Assembly (NCBI GenBank): GCA_964591195.1
Contig: CAZPZY010000001.1
Coordinates: 7,111-71,110, forward strand
Length of the DNA stretch: 64,000 nt
Direction of reading: 5' to 3'
DNA from: an uncultured Candidatus Saccharibacteria bacterium
Lineage (GTDB): Bacteria > Patescibacteriota > Minisyncoccia > Minisyncoccales > JAGGSE01
Shown here one piece after another: positions 20,984 through 28,520 of this stretch; position 1 is the stretch's first letter; each line of letters begins with the position of its first letter. A program made the translations under genes and the position numbers. The notes beneath the pieces are model-generated. The model was not told the origin of the DNA and did not search any database. It saw only the letters and a list, made by a program, of their open reading frames with translations.

Positions 20984-22306
20984 TCAAGTCAAGGGTAAAG
21001 AAAAGTGAAACACAGACCCCTTGTTTTCCTCTGATTCTGCCCAGATTTTCCCCCGGTGTGCCTCAATAATATTTTTGGAAATAAATAGCCCCAGGCCGGT
21101 TCCTTCTGTTTCCATTCTCACTGCATTTGCCCCTCTAAAAAATTTAGTAAAGAGTCTGTCCTGTTGTTCCTTGGGAATACCTATACCCGTATCCCTTACG
21201 GAAAATTCTATCTCTTTCTTCTTCCGCTTAAGAGAAACAACAATTTTTCCTCCCGGGGGAGTGTATCTAACAGCGTTTTCCAGAAGGTTTTGAATCACCA
21301 AACTAATTTTTTCCTCATCAAGTTTAATCTGCGGTAGTTTTCCCTTTGGTCTTTTGAATTCAAACTTTATCTTTTTTCTCTTAATCTCTGCCTTGTGAGA
21401 ATTAATCACCGCCTGGCATATTTTTGTCAGATCGCGAAAAGCCGGCTTATAGATATATCTGCCTTCCTCAATCCTGGCAACGTCCAAAAGGTCGTTAACC
21501 AGATTAATCATCCGTTCATTGGACTGATAGGTTTTTTGAAGAAATCTCTTTTGTTCCTCAGTCAGGGGGCCCATATCCTCTGCCAAAATCATTCCCAAAC
21601 TCCATTTTATCGCTGACAGTGGAGTCCTTAATTGATGAGCGGCTACAGATACAAATTCGGTCTTCATTCTCTCTATCCGTTTTTCGTGGGTAATATCATG
21701 GAGTACAAGCAAACTTCCTATTCTTTCTTTCTCTCTTGTTATTGGGCTCGTTGTTATCTCCAGAATTAGGTTTTCATGGAGTTTAACCTCTTCTCGGAAG
21801 ACCTTTTTCTTTTTTTCGACTACCTGAACGACCAGTTTTAAGGAAGAAAAACGGCTCAAATTAGCAAGGGATTCTCCTTCTATCTCTTCCGCCCTAATGC
21901 CTAAAATCTCTTCCGCCTGAGAATTAACCAATGAAACCCTGTTGTCGGAATCAAAAACCAAAAGCCCGTCGGTTAGGTTGGCAATGATGGCAAGCGTCTT
22001 GTTTCTTTCCTCCTCAGCCTTCTTTCTGGCCTCATCAATATCTTCCAATATATTCAGCAGTGCCTTTCTCGCATCTTTTAGTTCTTTGGTCTTTTTTTCT
22101 AGCTGCTCTACCTTCCTTTTAATATCTGCCGCCTTGGCTATTTCCCTTATTCTCAAGACCATTTCTCTCTCCTTGGCTGCTTCCAGTTCTTTTATCTTTC
22201 GCTCCAATTCTTCTTTAACCCGAGTTAATTCAAGGTCTCTCCGGAGTAGCGTTTTCGTACCCTTCCTTAATTCTTCAGATTTAAATTCTTCTTGCTTTTC
22301 TCCCAT
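20984..22306 (-). CDS. cytoplasmic histidine kinase (N-terminal coiled coil, PAS, HisKA, HATPase_c)
   Basis: H-box AAHQLRTPLSAI; N/G boxes NLLENAVRYT, DTGIGI, GTGLGLFISKNIIEAHRG. Confidence 0.8.
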   Translation of the reverse strand: MGEKQEEFKSEELRKGTKTLLRRDLELTRVKEELERKIKELEAAKEREMVLRIREIAKAADIKRKVEQLEKKTKELKDARKALLNILEDIDEARKKAEEERNKTLAIIANLTDGLLVFDSDNRVSLVNSQAEEILGIRAEEIEGESLANLSRFSSLKLVVQVVEKKKKVFREEVKLHENLILEITTSPITREKERIGSLLVLHDITHEKRIERMKTEFVSVAAHQLRTPLSAIKWSLGMILAEDMGPLTEEQKRFLQKTYQSNERMINLVNDLLDVARIEEGRYIYKPAFRDLTKICQAVINSHKAEIKRKKIKFEFKRPKGKLPQIKLDEEKISLVIQNLLENAVRYTPPGGKIVVSLKRKKKEIEFSVRDTGIGIPKEQQDRLFTKFFRGANAVRMETEGTGLGLFISKNIIEAHRGKIWAESEENKGSVFHFSLPLT

Positions 22307-23274
22307 TATTTTTGTTTTTGGTCCTTATATTTTTCTAATTCCTCTTTTAATTTCTTAATCTCCTTCTTTAGTTCTATCATTCTCAATTCCCGGCCAACAG
22401 TTAATTTTTGAAATCTTTCCAATTCTGTCAATCTTTCCTGAAGTTCTTTTGTCCTTTCCTTAACCTTTTCTTCCAAACTCTCGGTCAGCTTTCTTAATTC
22501 TTTGGTCCTTTCTTGAACCTTTACCTCCAACCCCGCCTTCTCTTTTTCCAGGGCCTCTTTTGATTTTCTTAAATCCTCAACTGTTCTGTTAAAGGTATCA
22601 GCCAATTCTCCTATTTCTGTTTTTGACCTAACCTTAACCTTTACCTTAAGGTTCCCTTCTCTGATTTTCTGACAGGCACGGTTTAATTTTCTCAAGGGGG
22701 TCACTATTTCCCTTAAGAGAATGACTAAAATCAAAATAGTTATCAACAAGCCGCTCCCTGTGATTAAAAAGTCCCTTATCCACATATCTCTAATGGTTTT
22801 CTCTATGCTAGCCAGGGTAAACCCGACCCAGATGGTCTTGTTTTGGTAGCCAGGATAAATAATCAACTTTGTTTTTTCCCCTTCAAAAAAACTATCTTTA
22901 ATTAGCGGCTTTTGTGTGCTAATTACCTTTAGGATGTCAGGTTCTTTAATAATCCTTCCCCATTCTTTTTCAATACTGCTTTTATAAATAGTCCCATCTT
23001 GATTGACCACCCGGATATATTTCACATCTTTAAAGGTAGCCAGTTCTCCAATGAGGGCTTTTTCCATTCCGGGCACCAGAGCCAATCTATAAACCCAAAT
23101 CGGAGATGCCAAAGATTCATTTAGTGTCTCGGCTAGATGAATCTTTTCCCTAATTGCCGTTTCAATCAAATCCTTTTTATGCTGACTAATAGAGAAATAA
23201 ACAGAAGCAAAATTAGCAGTAATTAAAATTCCGAAAACAACAAAAATAATGGTGTAGAGTGAATGTTTTCTCAT
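22306..23274 (-). CDS. membrane sensor protein: TM, periplasmic domain, TM, HAMP, long coiled coil; no kinase domain
   Basis: Two hydrophobic segments flank a ~150-aa extracytoplasmic region; HAMP-like segment; stop TAA overlaps the ATG of the downstream kinase (TAATG). Confidence 0.6.
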   Translation of the reverse strand: MRKHSLYTIIFVVFGILITANFASVYFSISQHKKDLIETAIREKIHLAETLNESLASPIWVYRLALVPGMEKALIGELATFKDVKYIRVVNQDGTIYKSSIEKEWGRIIKEPDILKVISTQKPLIKDSFFEGEKTKLIIYPGYQNKTIWVGFTLASIEKTIRDMWIRDFLITGSGLLITILILVILLREIVTPLRKLNRACQKIREGNLKVKVKVRSKTEIGELADTFNRTVEDLRKSKEALEKEKAGLEVKVQERTKELRKLTESLEEKVKERTKELQERLTELERFQKLTVGRELRMIELKKEIKKLKEELEKYKDQKQK

Positions 23275-23278
23275 AAAC

Positions 23279-24223
23279 CTACTCTGGAATGGCTGATGAG
23301 CTGTGGCTGGCAGATACTACATCAATAAAAAGGTCTGAGAATTTTTTTGCTTTTTCCTTGCTTACCCCCAATTTCAATAATTCTTTTTCTGATAGAGATG
23401 CCCCTTGGTCAACGGCAACTATTTTGTAGGAAGGAAACCTTGATTTTAGCCAGATACCCAGTTCATAAGGGGTGATAAAGACCGGGTTAAAGAGTTGGCC
23501 CCATTTTCTAAAATCAGACAGAGACAATGAATCAAAACGCCCGTTGGTAAATAAAATCAAATCTATTTTTTTCAGTTGAACCAGTTCTTGATATTTCCGA
23601 GGGAAATTCAAATTGTACTGGATCTCCGGGTCAATTAAAATCCTGGCCCCCTTTGGGCTTTCAAGCAACCAGGCACCATGACCCAACCACTCGGTCTTAA
23701 CCCCTAACAATTCTTTTTCTTCTCCTATTTGAAATTTTAGGGCTTTGCTTCTCAGATCATATTTTTCCAGCTCTTTAAAAAATTCCTCCGGGTTTTTGAC
23801 TAACTCAGGAAAACTAGCATAACGGTCAGGCACAATATAAGAAGAGGGACCAATCAAACAAGCGGCATAGGCAGCGGCTTTAGGGCTTAGGCTATAGATA
23901 TTTCCAATTGGCAAAAAGGCAACATCTGGTTTATAAAACCTACCTATTAGTTGCAGATTAGAATCCAGCCCTGTAGGTCCGGAAAAATAAAATTTGGTTC
24001 CATTTTCAAACCCTATTACATAACCCACTGCTTCTCCTGTATAAATATAAGGGGCGACCCTTTTTTCTAAGAGCGCCTCTTTCCTGTCTAGGTTCTCCAT
24101 TGTTTTTTCTATTCTTTCCAAACTGATTTTCAGATTATTGGAAACACTAATGGCTAAAAAAATTCCAGTTAAAGATATAATTAAGACGCTAATTAAAATA
24201 GTGAGGATAAATTTGTTGCTCAT
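23279..24223 (-). CDS. membrane-anchored MBL-fold (Lactamase_B_3-like) protein, apparently circularly permuted and lacking the His metal site
   Basis: GPTGLDSNLQLIGRFYKPDVAFLPIGNIYSL...SYIVP (normally the C-terminal part of the fold) precedes WLGHGAWLLESPKGARILIDP...IDLILFTNGRFDSL (normally the N-terminal part; HxHxDH replaced by TNGRFD). Confidence 0.45.
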   Translation of the reverse strand: MSNKFILTILISVLIISLTGIFLAISVSNNLKISLERIEKTMENLDRKEALLEKRVAPYIYTGEAVGYVIGFENGTKFYFSGPTGLDSNLQLIGRFYKPDVAFLPIGNIYSLSPKAAAYAACLIGPSSYIVPDRYASFPELVKNPEEFFKELEKYDLRSKALKFQIGEEKELLGVKTEWLGHGAWLLESPKGARILIDPEIQYNLNFPRKYQELVQLKKIDLILFTNGRFDSLSLSDFRKWGQLFNPVFITPYELGIWLKSRFPSYKIVAVDQGASLSEKELLKLGVSKEKAKKFSDLFIDVVSASHSSSAIPE

Positions 24224-24302
24224 ACTATTTTTATTTTAGCATTTTTTTCTCAAAAGAAAAATGGGGCTGATAAAAAGCCCCATTTTTCTTCTTTTGTTCT
24301 GA

Positions 24303-25457
24303 TTACTTCAGTTCAAAGACCGAAAGGGAAGAGTCCTCAAATCCAGCCACATAGACATATGGTCCTGAGACATAAACTGACCAAGCGCCACCCAAGTAAT
24401 ATGGAGCGCCCCTCCCTTGAATGGAATCCACCAAGGTTGGTTTTTTCGGGTTGCTGATATCAAAGACTGAGAGAGCGCTGTCCTTAGCAGAGGCAACATA
24501 GGCATATTTCCCGGAAACAAAGACAGAAGAGGCACCTCCCAAAAAGTAGGGACTGCCGGCTCCGTGAACATTGCCCAAAAACAGGGGAGCAGTTGGGTCA
24601 GAGACATCAAAAATAGTCAGGGAATTGTCATACATTGAAGCAACATATGCCTTATTTCCAGAGACAAAAACTGAGGTTGCTCCGTCAAGATAATTTGGAT
24701 AACCGGCTCCTCTGGCAGTACCGACATGTTTTGGATGGGTTGGATCGGAAACATCAGAAACGCTCAAGGCATCATCACCAGCCGTAGCCACATAGGCATG
24801 GTTATGGCTTACAGCAACAGAACTGGCTCCGTCTAGGTAGGGGGATGCCTTGCCGGCAACCGAACCAAGATACTTCGGATTGCTTGGGTCGGAAACATCA
24901 ATCAAGGTCAGGGCCTTATCATCAAAGGCGGCAACATAGGCAATGTTCTTAACCACACAAACCGAGTTTGCTCCGTCAAGATAATTGGGGGAACCAGCAC
25001 CAGAAATGACTCCTAGGTGCTTTGGATTTTCCGGGTCAGAGACATCAAAAATAGTCAGGGCGTCATCTAAATAGGAAGCAACATAGGCACGGTTCCCAGA
25101 GACAAAAACAGAATCTGCTCCACCCAAGTAGTAGGGGGCCCCTGCTCCTTTCAATACCTTTACCAATTTAGGATGAGAAGGGTCGGAGATATCAAAGACT
25201 GAAAGAGCACTGTCCTGCAGAGAAGCAGTAAAGGCATAATTTCCTGCAATATGAACAGAACTTACCCCCTTCAAGAAATTTGGAGAGCCGCCTCCTGAAA
25301 TCTTTCCTACAAACTCAAGATTCCCCTTCTGAACTGGCGGCGGCAGTGGAGGAGTAGGGGATGGTGGCGAGGGCTTTCTCAACCAGATAAAGGAAAAACC
25401 GACAAAGGCAACAACTACAACGATAAATACTAACCAATAAATCTTATTATCCTTCAT
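24303..25457 (-). CDS. secreted LVIVD-repeat beta-propeller protein (seven ~43-aa repeats)
   Basis: Seven repeats of G-A-G-x-P-x-Y-L-x-G-A-x-S-V-x-V-S-G-N-x-A-Y-V-A-...-D-x-A-L-T-I-F-D-V-S-D-P-x-x-P-K; N-terminal TM/signal followed by a Pro-rich linker. Confidence 0.7.
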   Translation of the reverse strand: MKDNKIYWLVFIVVVVAFVGFSFIWLRKPSPPSPTPPLPPPVQKGNLEFVGKISGGGSPNFLKGVSSVHIAGNYAFTASLQDSALSVFDISDPSHPKLVKVLKGAGAPYYLGGADSVFVSGNRAYVASYLDDALTIFDVSDPENPKHLGVISGAGSPNYLDGANSVCVVKNIAYVAAFDDKALTLIDVSDPSNPKYLGSVAGKASPYLDGASSVAVSHNHAYVATAGDDALSVSDVSDPTHPKHVGTARGAGYPNYLDGATSVFVSGNKAYVASMYDNSLTIFDVSDPTAPLFLGNVHGAGSPYFLGGASSVFVSGKYAYVASAKDSALSVFDISNPKKPTLVDSIQGRGAPYYLGGAWSVYVSGPYVYVAGFEDSSLSVFELK

Positions 25458-26526: not shown

Positions 26527-27807
26527 ATGGACGTATCGCTATCATCATCCATTTCTAATGTAGTAAAAGAAATAAAGAATGTCCCGGGATTCAAGAAGAA
26601 GATAGAAAACGCTCTTCAAAAAAACATTACTGAACTTTTTGCAATTATCCTGGGAGGAGCCATTGGCTTAAGGGCCTCCGACATTCATATTGAGCCGCGA
26701 AAAGAAACAGTCCGGCTCCGTCTCAGAATTGATGGAATCCTGCAGGATGTAATCCTTATCAGTCCTAAAATCTATCACTCTCTTCTTTCCAGAATAAAAT
26801 TTGTCTCGGGATTAAAATTAAATGTAAGTGACCGGCCCCAGGATGGAAGATTCTCAATTATTCAAGGAGAAAGGAAAATTGAAACCAGGGTCTCAAGCCT
26901 CCCCTCTGATTTTGGAGAATCAATAGTAATGCGATTGCTAGATCCGAGAAATCTGATTGAGATAGAACAACTTGGCTTAAGAAAGGACCTGTTGGCACTT
27001 TTCAAAAAACAAATAAAAAGACCAAACGGAATGATTTTGGTAACAGGTCCTACCGGCTCTGGTAAAACAACAACCCTCTATGCCTTTCTGAAGCGGATAC
27101 AAAATCCAGAGATAAAGATAATCACCATAGAAGACCCCATTGAGTACAAACTAAAAGGAATCACCCAAACCCAGGTCAATCATAAAAAGGGATATGACTT
27201 CGCCTCGGGCCTAAGGGCGCTTATGAGACAGGACCCGGATGTGATATTGGTTGGAGAAATCAGAGACCTGGAGACCGCTGAAATTGCCTGCGAGGCCGCT
27301 CTCACTGGTCACCTTGTTTTATCTACCCTCCACACAAACGACGCTGCCGGCGCTATAGCCCGGTTGGTTGACATAGGGGTCCGACCCATTTCAATTGCCC
27401 CGGCAATCAATATGGCTATTGCCCAGCGTCTTGTAAGAAGGGTCTGTAAAAAATGCGTAAGGTATGTCAAGCCCTCTAAGGAGGAAAGAAAAAAAATAAA
27501 AGAAGGGCTGGCAAATGTAAGAAAAGATATTATTCCTCCAGAATTTTTTGCCACCGACTTCAAAATTCCAAAGATACAAGGTTGTCCTGACTGCAATTTC
27601 ACTGGATACCGAGGAAGAACCGGCATTTATGAGGCATTCGTGGTGGATGACCAGATGAAGGAATTTATTTTAACAAACCCCTCAATAACAGCCACAAGAA
27701 ATTTAGCCATAAAAAAAGGAATGGTCTTAATGCATCAGGATGGATTGATTAAGGTGCTGGAGGGTATAACCACAATTGAAGAGGTGGAAAGGGTAACTGG
27801 AGAATAA
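26527..27807 (+). CDS. GspE/PilB-family secretion/pilus-assembly ATPase (short form)
   Basis: Walker A VTGPTGSGKTTT; GEIRDLETAEIA...TGHLVLSTLHTND; C-terminal Zn motif CPDCNFTGYRGRTGIYE. Confidence 0.85.
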   Translation: MDVSLSSSISNVVKEIKNVPGFKKKIENALQKNITELFAIILGGAIGLRASDIHIEPRKETVRLRLRIDGILQDVILISPKIYHSLLSRIKFVSGLKLNVSDRPQDGRFSIIQGERKIETRVSSLPSDFGESIVMRLLDPRNLIEIEQLGLRKDLLALFKKQIKRPNGMILVTGPTGSGKTTTLYAFLKRIQNPEIKIITIEDPIEYKLKGITQTQVNHKKGYDFASGLRALMRQDPDVILVGEIRDLETAEIACEAALTGHLVLSTLHTNDAAGAIARLVDIGVRPISIAPAINMAIAQRLVRRVCKKCVRYVKPSKEERKKIKEGLANVRKDIIPPEFFATDFKIPKIQGCPDCNFTGYRGRTGIYEAFVVDDQMKEFILTNPSITATRNLAIKKGMVLMHQDGLIKVLEGITTIEEVERVTGE

Positions 27808-27815
27808 ATATAAAT

Positions 27816-28520
27816 ATGAGGTTCTGGATCTTCGCCCTGCTTTTTAGTGCCCTTCCCTTCTTAATCAGAGCCGCCTCTCCTCTTGATATTGTTATCAATG
27901 AGATTGCCTGGATGGGCCAACCTGATTCTGCCAAAAATGAATGGATAGAACTGTACAATAACAGAGAAAAAGAGATAGATACCTCTGGTTGGAGCATTGA
28001 AAATGCCGGCATCAATAGAAAAACCTTGAAGATATCTAAGGGAAGGGTACCAGGCAATGGATTCTTCCTTATCTGCAGAAAGAAAATGCCAGATTGTGAT
28101 TTTATCGCCAAGGACCTCTCCCTTGCCAATGACTACTTGAAAAATGGTCCACTGATCTTAAAAGACAAAGCGGGCAACATCATTGATAAAACACCAAAAG
28201 CAAAAAACAAAAAATGGCCCGCTGGCTCTGTTAAGACCGGACAGACAATGGCAAGAAAAAATCCAAAAGACAAAGGGGATCTAATCAGCAATTGGCTAAC
28301 AAGCCAAAGAAGCGGAGGAACACCTAAGGCGAAGAATCTCTTCATTTCTCCAAAAATTAAAAATCAGGAAAGGCAGGAAAGGCAGGGCTTCAAAATTGAA
28401 AACCAAAATCATTCGCTGAAGAAAACCTCGCCTGATACAATGCTAATTGCCTTTTCCCTGGCTATCTTTTCAGGAACAGGGGCTGTTCTCCTTAAAAGAA
28501 AAATAAAAGGGACCTCCTAA
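27816..28520 (+). CDS. secreted lamin-tail-domain (LTD) protein with C-terminal TM anchor
   Basis: Signal peptide; LDIVINEIAWMGQPDSAKNEWIELYNN is the LTD signature; C-terminal hydrophobic segment followed by KRKIKG. Confidence 0.65.
   Translation: MRFWIFALLFSALPFLIRAASPLDIVINEIAWMGQPDSAKNEWIELYNNREKEIDTSGWSIENAGINRKTLKISKGRVPGNGFFLICRKKMPDCDFIAKDLSLANDYLKNGPLILKDKAGNIIDKTPKAKNKKWPAGSVKTGQTMARKNPKDKGDLISNWLTSQRSGGTPKAKNLFISPKIKNQERQERQGFKIENQNHSLKKTSPDTMLIAFSLAIFSGTGAVLLKRKIKGTS

Follow-up and report, generated by a model that had tools for sequence, protein, structure and literature searches.

The 64,000-nucleotide window analyzed here (contig CAZPZY010000001.1 of assembly GCA_964591195.1, from an uncultured Candidatus Saccharibacteria bacterium) carries on its reverse strand an open reading frame (ORF) of 945 nt (23279..24223), which encodes a protein of 314 amino acids (aa). 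In this protein the two halves that make up the metallo-beta-lactamase (MBL) fold stand in swapped order behind an N-terminal membrane helix, and five of the seven metal ligands are replaced; the gene is followed directly by that of a WalK-like membrane sensor. We consider it probable that the protein is an extracytoplasmic, catalytically dead, membrane-anchored co-sensor of a WalK/VicK-like two-component system whose kinase is split over two polypeptides. The original prediction, made from the sequence of the window, had described a circularly permuted, metal-site-less MBL-fold protein and had suggested a probably non-catalytic binding module with an N-terminal anchor. Every peptide quoted there is present in the product of this ORF, and the anchored, non-catalytic binding module is still the best reading.

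Circular permutation of the MBL fold

Two non-collinear partial matches with the Lactamase_B_3 profile (PF13483) had been expected. Non-collinear matches were obtained, but PF13483 covered the second half only (36.5 bits, cut-off 24; aa 178-246 to profile positions 3-58 of 160), and the first half was matched by Lactamase_B_2 (PF12706; 37.7 bits, cut-off 27; aa 62-128 to positions 122-194 of 200). By the curated Pfam thresholds, the protein belongs to the MBL-fold superfamily, with one profile for each half and the two in non-collinear order. The NCBIfam model NF001911 (UPF0173 metal-dependent hydrolase; E = 3e-30) was also matched in two stretches, the better one placing aa 59-163 on positions 120-221 of 228. 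In the structure of TM_1162 (3x2z), chain residues 1-75 correspond to aa 174-255 of the protein and residues 119-214 to aa 59-157; the structure of Igni18 (6hrg) aligned non-collinearly in the same manner, its residues 126-218 corresponding to the first half of the domain. The order of UPF0173 proteins, N-terminal half and then C-terminal half, is thus swapped in the native protein.

A de-permuted sequence was then constructed in silico by joining aa 173-314 before aa 56-172. It matched NF001911 in one stretch (aa 4-250 to positions 2-221 of 228) with 120.1 bits, versus 105.4 bits for the two stretches of the native sequence, and it aligned in one piece with residues 1-214 of the TM_1162 H48A chain (3x2x). 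With homologous segments in swapped order that become collinear on re-joining, the protein is a natural circular permutant. The swapped halves of the original prediction were therefore borne out by the profile and PDB matches and by the de-permutation test, as well as by a confident structure model and by the same arrangement in dozens of genomes (see below).

The permutation junction is located directly after the motif-3 histidine (…SASH307SSSAIPE-COOH), and by alignment the breakpoint falls at approximately residues 113-118 of TM_1162 and 117-125 of Igni18. In Igni18, residues 117-126 form a mobile loop at the trimer interface beside the active site, designated PVR5 (PMC7846560). Judged from the alignment, the new termini lie in the loop that corresponds to PVR5, and an Igni18-type trimer interface is unlikely to be kept because the cut lies in the loop that forms it (PMC7846560). 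Few enzyme scaffolds have been studied as much as the MBL fold; a natural permutant that marks PVR5 as a loop tolerating chain breakage is of use for protein engineering and for the study of fold evolution.

The structure of the permuted protein was modeled with AlphaFold 2 (AF2) on a 43-sequence family alignment. The model (mean predicted local distance difference test score (pLDDT), 89.9; predicted template modeling score, 0.78) consists of a single long helix (aa 2-55) and, after it, a compact alpha/beta domain, which has a long first strand (aa 60-71) and a long last strand (aa 299-311); by homology, these strands would be the arms of a hairpin that the permutation cuts open. Relative to UPF0173 structures, the chain has an insertion of about 16 residues ahead of its last strand. 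Foldseek searches of the PDB with the model returned only MBL-fold proteins, the top hits with probability 1.00. The best hits (TM_1162, Igni18 and 7e3v) were aligned over approximately 100 columns, namely one half of the domain, at a root mean square deviation (rmsd) of 1.4-1.9 Å and 29-36% identity (3x2z: 106 columns, 1.6 Å, 33%). A superposition limited to half of the domain is what a sequential alignment of a permutant gives. The AF2 model and the MBL-fold identity of all top hits support the alpha-beta/beta-alpha sandwich as the predicted fold. Longer Foldseek alignments were poor (1zkp, 266 columns at 6.1 Å) and exploited the pseudo-symmetry of the sandwich. An illusory permutation arising from this pseudo-symmetry was ruled out by the de-permutation test and by the half-specific motifs, which are found in the "wrong" halves: HxHxDH and the motif-3 His in half 2, GDTG and HY in half 1.

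Compared with the solved UPF0173 proteins (TM_1162, 3x2x-3x30; Igni18, 6hrg; cAMP-bound 7e3v/7e3w), both halves are homologous (29-36% identity over the aligned halves), the same sandwich is predicted, and the same five motifs occur in the permuted relatives with intact sites. The solved proteins differ in having the canonical order and neither anchor nor stalk, whereas the window protein is swapped, anchored and short of five of the seven ligands; because they start directly at strand 1, they are presumably cytoplasmic and soluble. UlaG, given in the JGI annotation and mentioned beside UPF0173 in the original prediction, was rejected as the closest family, since NCBIfam gave a match to UPF0173 (NF001911) only; the closest parent family by profile is UPF0173, as represented by TM_1162 and Igni18. 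Existing annotations of the permuted proteins read "MBL fold metallo-hydrolase" or "UlaG" only. In full-text searches of a collection of papers, no description of a natural circular permutant of the MBL fold was found: in the Lipocone preprint, "circular permutation" and "metallo-beta-lactamase fold" co-occur incidentally only, and permutation, membrane anchors and kinases all go unmentioned in a paper that surveyed the candidate phyla radiation for MBL-like genes.

Metal ligands, family and origin

Catalytic MBL proteins carry HxHxDH and, further downstream, His, Asp and His. According to the family alignment, these seven positions are occupied in the window protein by N227, R229, D231 and S232, by H307, by P83 and by R134; D231 and the motif-3 H307 are kept (two of seven), and the lost metal site of the original prediction is confirmed for this protein. 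In half 1, motif 4 is degenerate (SGPTG, with P83 at the Asp of GDTG), as is motif 5 (PDRY, with R134 at the final His), so that two ligands are now arginine (R229 and R134). Half 2 contains WLGH182, the degenerate HxHxDH and the kept SASH307SSS, seven residues from the C-terminus. As for the reported replacement of HGHGDH by TNGRFD, the loss was correct and the register was off by one residue, which does not affect the conclusion: where the family consensus has T-H-G-H-F-D-H, the sequence T-N-G-R-F-D-S is found in the window protein and in the relatives nearest to it. The term "metal-site-less" applies to this protein but not to the whole family, the basal members of which keep all seven ligands. 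The complete set (H-H-D-H / H / D / H) is present in about 24 of the 57 full-length permuted members. In a neighbor-joining tree rooted on the ANME-1 sequence, all sequences with seven ligands (ANME-1, Clostridia and two Patescibacteria groups) were basal; within one Patescibacteria clade the last His of HxHxDH was lost first and the other ligands followed with varied replacements, the window protein and P0008 being the extreme (two of seven). Because sister lineages differ in their substitutions, relaxed constraint on the site, rather than its redesign, is indicated. The family displays the passage from enzyme to pseudoenzyme by steps, from seven ligands to two, with its genomic partner unchanged.

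Against the orthologue in the nearest locus (L013, 96% identical), 26 synonymous and 15 non-synonymous changes were counted, giving a ratio of non-synonymous to synonymous rates (dN/dS) of 0.15, so that the degenerate protein is being kept by selection, as fits a pseudoenzyme. With ligands lost, purifying selection and intact homologues in existence, the sequence data point to a pseudoenzyme. The protein remains below the NF001911 equivalog cut-off of 144 bits in both the native (105.4 bits) and the de-permuted form (120.1 bits), while permuted members with intact sites score 157.7 (P0059) and 140.7 bits (P0033). On this basis, we classify the window protein as a member of the MBL-fold superfamily that is, by its sequence, neither a UPF0173 equivalog nor a catalytic MBL.

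A search of 5.8 billion proteins yielded an identical protein (P0001) and about 58 other full-length homologues (308-325 aa, 40-96% identity), beyond which the hits fell off abruptly to canonical proteins of about 230 aa covering 21-50% of the query. When 1.84 billion cluster representatives were scanned exhaustively with HMMER, 5059 hits were obtained, approximately 15 of which matched in a single full-length stretch, as permuted proteins do, and the rest in two non-collinear stretches. In GTDB, surveyed with one genome per species, the permuted form was found in 16 species genomes: 14 of Patescibacteria type, one Clostridia metagenome-assembled genome (MAG; L027) and one Methanophagales/ANME-1 MAG (L028). 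The 14 are labeled Patescibacteria group, Ca. Paceibacter normanii, "uncultured Ca. Saccharibacteria" or, in two unclassified MAGs, "bacterium", and include two short contigs binned as Altiarchaeales. These two ("Candidatus Altiarchaeales archaeon"; L015, QMZG01000160.1; L016, QMZJ01000147.1) are 2.5-2.9 kb long and carry an MBL-HAMP gene pair about 60% identical to that of the window; mis-binning seems likely because the sequence is Patescibacteria-like and the contigs are short. The window itself has a Patescibacteria-like appearance: its nearest locus is L013, and the neighborhood of the gene is syntenic with labeled Patescibacteria loci. More distant permuted members (P0151, P0153, P0155, P0157 and P0161) likewise have an N-terminal membrane helix. 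The permuted architecture is conserved under selection in independent genomes (22 distinct loci in several phyla).

An origin by the standard route of duplication and truncation is plausible, and there are possible intermediates. In a betaproteobacterial MAG (L029:3515-5191), two secreted canonical UPF0173-like genes of 276 aa each lie 15 nt apart; they carry the GYVIEFENG motif of the permuted family, and a permutant could arise from such a pair by fusion and truncation. Their neighbors are a fumarase-like gene and a cyclase/TPR gene, with no kinase. In P0187 (453 aa), two complete MBL domains that belong to another subfamily are fused head to tail. P0215 (387 aa) and P0185 (499 aa), both secreted and in canonical order, contain, exactly behind the motif-3 HSSS, inserted His/Cys/Asp-rich segments of roughly 90-190 residues that look metal-binding, i.e., in the loop that holds the termini of the permutant; the loop that was cut thus tolerates disruption.

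Pairing with a WalK-like sensor

The gene directly downstream of the permuted MBL gene starts 4 nt after its stop codon and encodes a membrane protein with a HAMP domain (Pfam E = 1.5e-14, aa 186-236). Its AF2 model (pLDDT 84) comprises a first transmembrane segment (TM1) running into a long helix, a five-stranded alpha/beta domain (about aa 58-153), TM2, HAMP and a coiled coil of approximately 100 residues. The best Foldseek matches of this model were WalK models (9a5d_A, E = 1.3e-11, 271 columns), along with the extracellular domain of WalK as seen in crystals (4ywz, 7dud and 5is1), followed by the PDC/sCache domains of DcuS, KinD, CitA and DctB. The next gene, the start codon of which overlaps the HAMP-gene stop by 1 nt, encodes a histidine kinase whose best solved relative is Streptococcus mutans VicK (4i5s, E = 2.5e-47, aa 82-438), a WalK orthologue. 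As the WalK/VicK domain series is spread over two genes that overlap by 1 nt, the HAMP protein and the PAS kinase look like a WalK/VicK-like kinase split over two polypeptides, each with a long coiled coil. The two regulators encoded downstream consist of the receiver domain only, and equivalents of the first are present in the homologous clusters; with the kinase series split and no OmpR-type WalR, this is not a one-polypeptide WalRK/VicRK system, and the regulators are, by their domain content, CheY-like rather than WalR-like. Several of the homologous clusters encode, between the HAMP protein and a PAS kinase (about 520 aa), a further conserved protein that is about 200 aa long and without a Pfam hit.

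The pairing of the MBL gene with the sensor was examined across loci. In eight Patescibacteria homologues (42-62% identity), the gene directly downstream always encodes a HAMP protein (311-323 aa), and the rest of the cluster is variable: the flanks differ, and genes for amine oxidase, ABC substrate-binding, dCache, PocR and V4R proteins are inserted. The ANME-1 gene is followed by that of a kinase with an N-terminal domain homologous to the window sensor (E = 2e-22) fused straight to HisKA-HATPase, and homologues of the sensor domain also lie beside the permuted MBL in Clostridia (E = 2e-12) and in two further MAGs, L093 (E = 1e-14) and L094 (E = 3e-8). When a hidden Markov model (HMM) of the sensor domain was run over all ORFs of 95 loci (30 permuted and 65 canonical MBL), the domain was found immediately downstream on the same strand in all 30 permuted loci (22 distinct), versus three of the 65 canonical loci. 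Output modules vary across phyla (HAMP and coiled coil, or HisKA-HATPase directly) while the MBL-sensor pair persists. The three canonical exceptions (L033:1654-3325, Anaerolineales; L035:1276-2892, Bacteroidota; L040:531-2576, Desulfobacteraceae) are exported through the twin-arginine translocation (Tat) pathway (SRRxFLK), have intact sites and are encoded directly upstream of a membrane protein that combines the sensor domain and HAMP. Since these canonical MBL genes share the partner, the partnership exists in both topologies, and the permuted form is its membrane-anchored version. In the Clostridia MAG (L027:5031-8036), a lipoprotein-type permuted MBL gene is followed by two consecutive genes for paralogous sensor-domain proteins (HMM E = 1e-19 and 7e-19), which have a long helical C-terminal region and no recognizable kinase domain. 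Of all the evidence on function, this pairing is the best clue. As distant phyla strictly keep the MBL gene next to that of a WalK-like sensor, an accessory protein or co-sensor of a new type is predicted for two-component systems, and one that occurs in Patescibacteria and ANME archaea, groups in which signaling inputs are essentially unknown.

The globular domain is very probably outside the cell. The hydrophobic helix that had been noticed at the N-terminus was confirmed at aa 5-23/27, behind the tail MSNK. Across the family, the N-terminal tail has on average 1.3 K/R and 0.1 D/E and the flank C-terminal of the helix is net neutral; because the tail is thus positive and without acidic residues, an N-in/C-out topology is predicted. 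In the homologue from Clostridia, a lipoprotein signal (…CIALCVAFSAC-TDQ…) with a low-complexity tether takes the place of the anchor. The closest relatives in canonical order are exported, with twin-arginine signals (SRREALKG, SRRQLFKA, SRRQFFKG), Tat signals plus a lipobox (P0152, L031) or Sec signals (L029). Those among them that are most similar (L033, L035, L040, L031 and P0152, the last being the best and lying on a contig of just 2.8 kb) share the motifs GYVIEFENG, YKPDVA.LPIG and PWEL..F(W)IK with the permuted family; they differ in their canonical order, in a cleavable Tat signal that leaves them soluble or lipid-anchored, and in having all ligands intact. The globular domain of the window protein begins at about V56 (APYIYTGEAVGYVIGF…). 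Mean pairwise identity in the family is 59% and 56% for the two globular halves, 32% for the anchor and 26% for the stalk, the least conserved part.

Proposed role, alternatives and genomic surroundings

In the co-sensor role proposed here, the protein would be held by an N-in signal-anchor helix and a helical stalk of about 28 residues, with a globular MBL-fold domain derived from secreted UPF0173-type hydrolases through circular permutation. The ancestral partner of the sensor may have been a metal-loaded hydrolase or a metal-dependent ligand binder, and in relatives with intact sites the MBL may still produce, degrade or bind the molecule that is sensed, or serve as a reporter of metal status. 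In the lineage of the window, with five of seven ligands replaced, the binuclear center would not be bound, and binding would be the only role left to this putative pseudoenzyme. The conserved globular domain would contact the PDC/sCache domain of the HAMP protein, possibly depending on a ligand in the remodeled pocket, and would modulate the signal that the PAS kinase, and then the two receiver proteins, receive via HAMP and the coiled coil. Contact between ectodomains is more likely than a helix-helix mode because the globular halves are conserved and the anchor and stalk are not. We speculate that R229 and R134 may fill the space of the metal ions or form an anion-binding pocket, and that the position of the termini and the stalk at the active-site loop could couple pocket occupancy to the membrane.

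Several known systems resemble parts of this scheme. WalH and WalI (YycH/YycI) of Bacillota have one N-terminal membrane helix and an extracellular domain and modulate WalK, largely through their membrane helices (PMC4801191). The window protein is similar in its predicted single-helix extracellular plan and in its adjacency to a kinase of the TM-PDC/sCache-TM-HAMP-PAS-HisKA-HATPase type. It differs in that its gene precedes that of the kinase (upstream, not downstream), the kinase consists of two polypeptides and the receivers are not WalR-type DNA binders; moreover, it has the MBL fold and gave no Pfam match to the YycH or YycI families at E<=1. An interaction of the WalH/WalI kind through the membrane helix was disfavored, the anchor and stalk being least conserved. 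WalJ (VicX/YycJ) is likewise an MBL-fold protein whose gene is linked to a WalK-type kinase (PMC4801191). It is cytoplasmic, of canonical order and reported to be a 5'-3' exonuclease; orthology was rejected because no similarity past the superfamily level was detected, and the parallel may be coincidental. A precedent for an MBL-type fold as the sensory partner of a signaling receptor is given by ODP, a di-iron protein that binds oxygen and acts as a chemotaxis sensor in Treponema denticola and Thermotoga. Its PDB entry, 6qnm, was among the Foldseek hits of the window protein (rank 37, E = 2.3e-3); ODP differs in being cytoplasmic and unpermuted, in keeping its di-iron site and in having a chemoreceptor as partner. 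That a separate extracytoplasmic protein can gate the sensor domain of a kinase is known from LuxP-LuxQ and TorT-TorS, in which the periplasmic partners LuxP and TorT have periplasmic-binding-protein folds and are not permuted.

Several points weigh against the co-sensor interpretation. Physical contact of the MBL protein with the sensor is an assumption, and we infer rather than observe the direction of regulation and the identity of a ligand. The extracytoplasmic topology is a prediction, and the tree that orders the losses of ligands carries no support values. D231, H307 and H182 are kept, which makes a residual mononuclear site or metal-independent activity conceivable. The poorly conserved anchor (32%) and stalk (26%) do not support an interaction in the style of WalH/WalI. 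Finally, conservation of the Patescibacteria neighborhood may partly be inherited synteny, as the genes for the 5'-3' exonuclease, Fpg and holA are also kept; the argument from pairing is carried by the loci from other phyla.

The strongest competing explanation, which we nevertheless regard as unlikely, is that the protein is still an enzyme: an anchored extracytoplasmic hydrolase with a reduced or alternative site, placed next to the sensor because it makes or destroys the ligand of the latter. Its site could be either mononuclear, built from D231, H307 and H182, or independent of metal, in which case R229 and R134 would take a catalytic or oxyanion role. Many members with intact sites share the gene context, hence catalysis is probably ancestral; D231 is invariant throughout the family, purifying selection is compatible with an enzyme, and UPF0173 enzymes such as Igni18 are promiscuous, with activities that change with the cofactor (PMC7846560). 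The losses, however, include the two HxH histidines as well as the bridging Asp of GDTG (now Pro), they accumulated stepwise in one clade with sister replacements as diverse as S, T, N, Q, D, G, K and R, and the score is below the NF001911 equivalog cut-off even after de-permutation (120 vs 144 bits). Less probable still is an anchored surface protein that has nothing to do with the two-component system, its adjacency reflecting synteny or co-regulation and its function being upkeep of the envelope together with the LVIVD propeller encoded upstream. It is true that the propeller is kept in several clusters and that the genes for T2SSE, TsaE, the 5'-3' exonuclease, Fpg and holA are also syntenic in Patescibacteria. 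Yet the pair persists in Clostridia, ANME-1 and other MAGs where no other neighbor does, it survives the insertion of unrelated genes elsewhere in the cluster, the sensor is absent from 62 of the 65 canonical MBL loci, and many clusters lack the propeller, whose gene has a hairpin between it and the MBL gene.

We assign an even lower likelihood to a cytoplasmic domain with an N-out anchor that acts on the HAMP domain or the coiled coil, echoing the occurrence of the beta-lactamase-fold gene walJ (vicX) in the WalRK/VicRK loci of Bacillota (PMC4801191). Several K/R residues after the anchor would suit this orientation, but the N-terminal tail is positive and without acidic residues, the C-terminal flank is net neutral, and the homologue in Clostridia and the closest canonical relatives carry lipoprotein and Tat/Sec signals, respectively; in addition, no sequence relationship beyond UPF0173 was detected, and WalJ has no membrane anchor (PMC4801191). 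That the gene is a mis-assembly, a decaying gene, a fusion of truncated tandem copies or a product of MBL pseudo-symmetry is refuted. Tandem canonical copies (L029) and a tandem fusion (P0187) do exist and a canonical-order Foldseek alignment can be made, although at the poor rmsd of 6.1 Å (1zkp); against this, the same architecture recurs on many independent contigs, samples and phyla with a dN/dS of 0.15, which rules out an assembly artefact or pseudogene, and the motif positions, the collinear de-permuted alignment and the AF2 model (pLDDT 89.9) agree with a genuine permutant.

A broader interpretation of the same data is tentative, and we judge its chances to be below even. According to it, the MBL protein and the PDC/sCache sensor would form a widespread, undescribed two-protein extracytoplasmic module in Patescibacteria, Clostridia, Anaerolineales, Bacteroidota, Desulfobacteraceae and ANME-1 archaea, in which a binuclear-metal hydrolase or its dead descendant would be the co-receptor of a WalK-like sensor; in Patescibacteria the module would later have evolved into a metal-free binder of a ligand or partner. 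The permutation would be adaptive, in that termini moved to the mobile active-site loop would couple pocket occupancy mechanically, via the stalk helix, to the membrane and the partner. If true, the MBL fold would gain its first natural circular permutant, and kinases a new class of accessory protein.

The features of the window are listed in Table 1.

Table 1. Features in and around the permuted MBL gene, with positions in the window
Feature	Position	Strand	Basis
Permuted MBL-fold protein gene, 314 aa	23279..24223	-	ORF list, Pfam and NCBIfam matches; stop codon 23279-23281
Predicted N-terminal transmembrane signal anchor, aa 5-27	24143..24211	-	Hydrophobicity and charge analysis; inside AF2 helix 2-55
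Predicted helical stalk, aa 28-55, from anchor to globular domain	24059..24142	-	AF2 helix 2-55
Domain half 1, aa 56-172, homologous to canonical UPF0173 C-terminal half	23708..24058	-	NF001911 120-221; 3x2z 119-214; 6hrg 126-218
Domain half 2, aa 173-314, homologous to canonical UPF0173 N-terminal half	23282..23707	-	Lactamase_B_3 3-58; 3x2z 1-75
Degenerate HxHxDH motif, N227-G-R229-F-D231-S232	23528..23545	-	Family alignment
Partner membrane protein, 322 aa, TM1-PDC/sCache-TM2-HAMP-coiled coil	22306..23274	-	Pfam, AF2, Foldseek
Extracytoplasmic PDC/sCache-like sensor, about 140 aa, aa 28-165 of the HAMP protein	22780..23193	-	AF2, Foldseek
Cytoplasmic histidine kinase, 440 aa, coiled-coil/PAS/HisKA/HATPase	20984..22306	-	Pfam
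Single-domain response regulator 1, 123 aa	20558..20929	-	Pfam Response_reg, E = 1.5e-25
Single-domain response regulator 2, 122 aa	20174..20542	-	Pfam Response_reg, E = 6.3e-28
Membrane-anchored LVIVD-repeat beta-propeller, 384 aa, upstream	24303..25457	-	Pfam LVIVD, E = 7.5e-50, 7 repeats
15-bp GC-cored palindromic hairpin with T-rich flanks, between propeller and MBL genes	24254..24290	.	Terminator-like scan, consensus match only

The beta-propeller protein has an N-terminal anchor and a proline-rich linker and is 64% identical to the product of a 379-aa gene at the same position of L012, which is without a precomputed Pfam hit. It is a variable neighbor, being absent in L003, L007, L009, L010 and L011. 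The hairpin between the two genes is a possible terminator, and the MBL gene may therefore begin its own transcription unit. The promoter scan of the window was not above shuffled sequence (9 sites vs 12.7 expected), and its only candidate before the gene, which ends at the start codon, was not used. A class I lysyl-tRNA synthetase gene (PF01921; 17677..19359, reverse strand) lies in the same co-directional string of genes. On the opposite strand, genes for a T2SSE-type pilus/secretion ATPase (26527..27807) and then a lamin-tail-domain protein (27816..28520) were found. Genes for T2SSE, the 5'-3' exonuclease, Fpg and holA recur in homologous Patescibacteria loci, and the lamin-tail-domain gene is present in two of them (L003 and L012).

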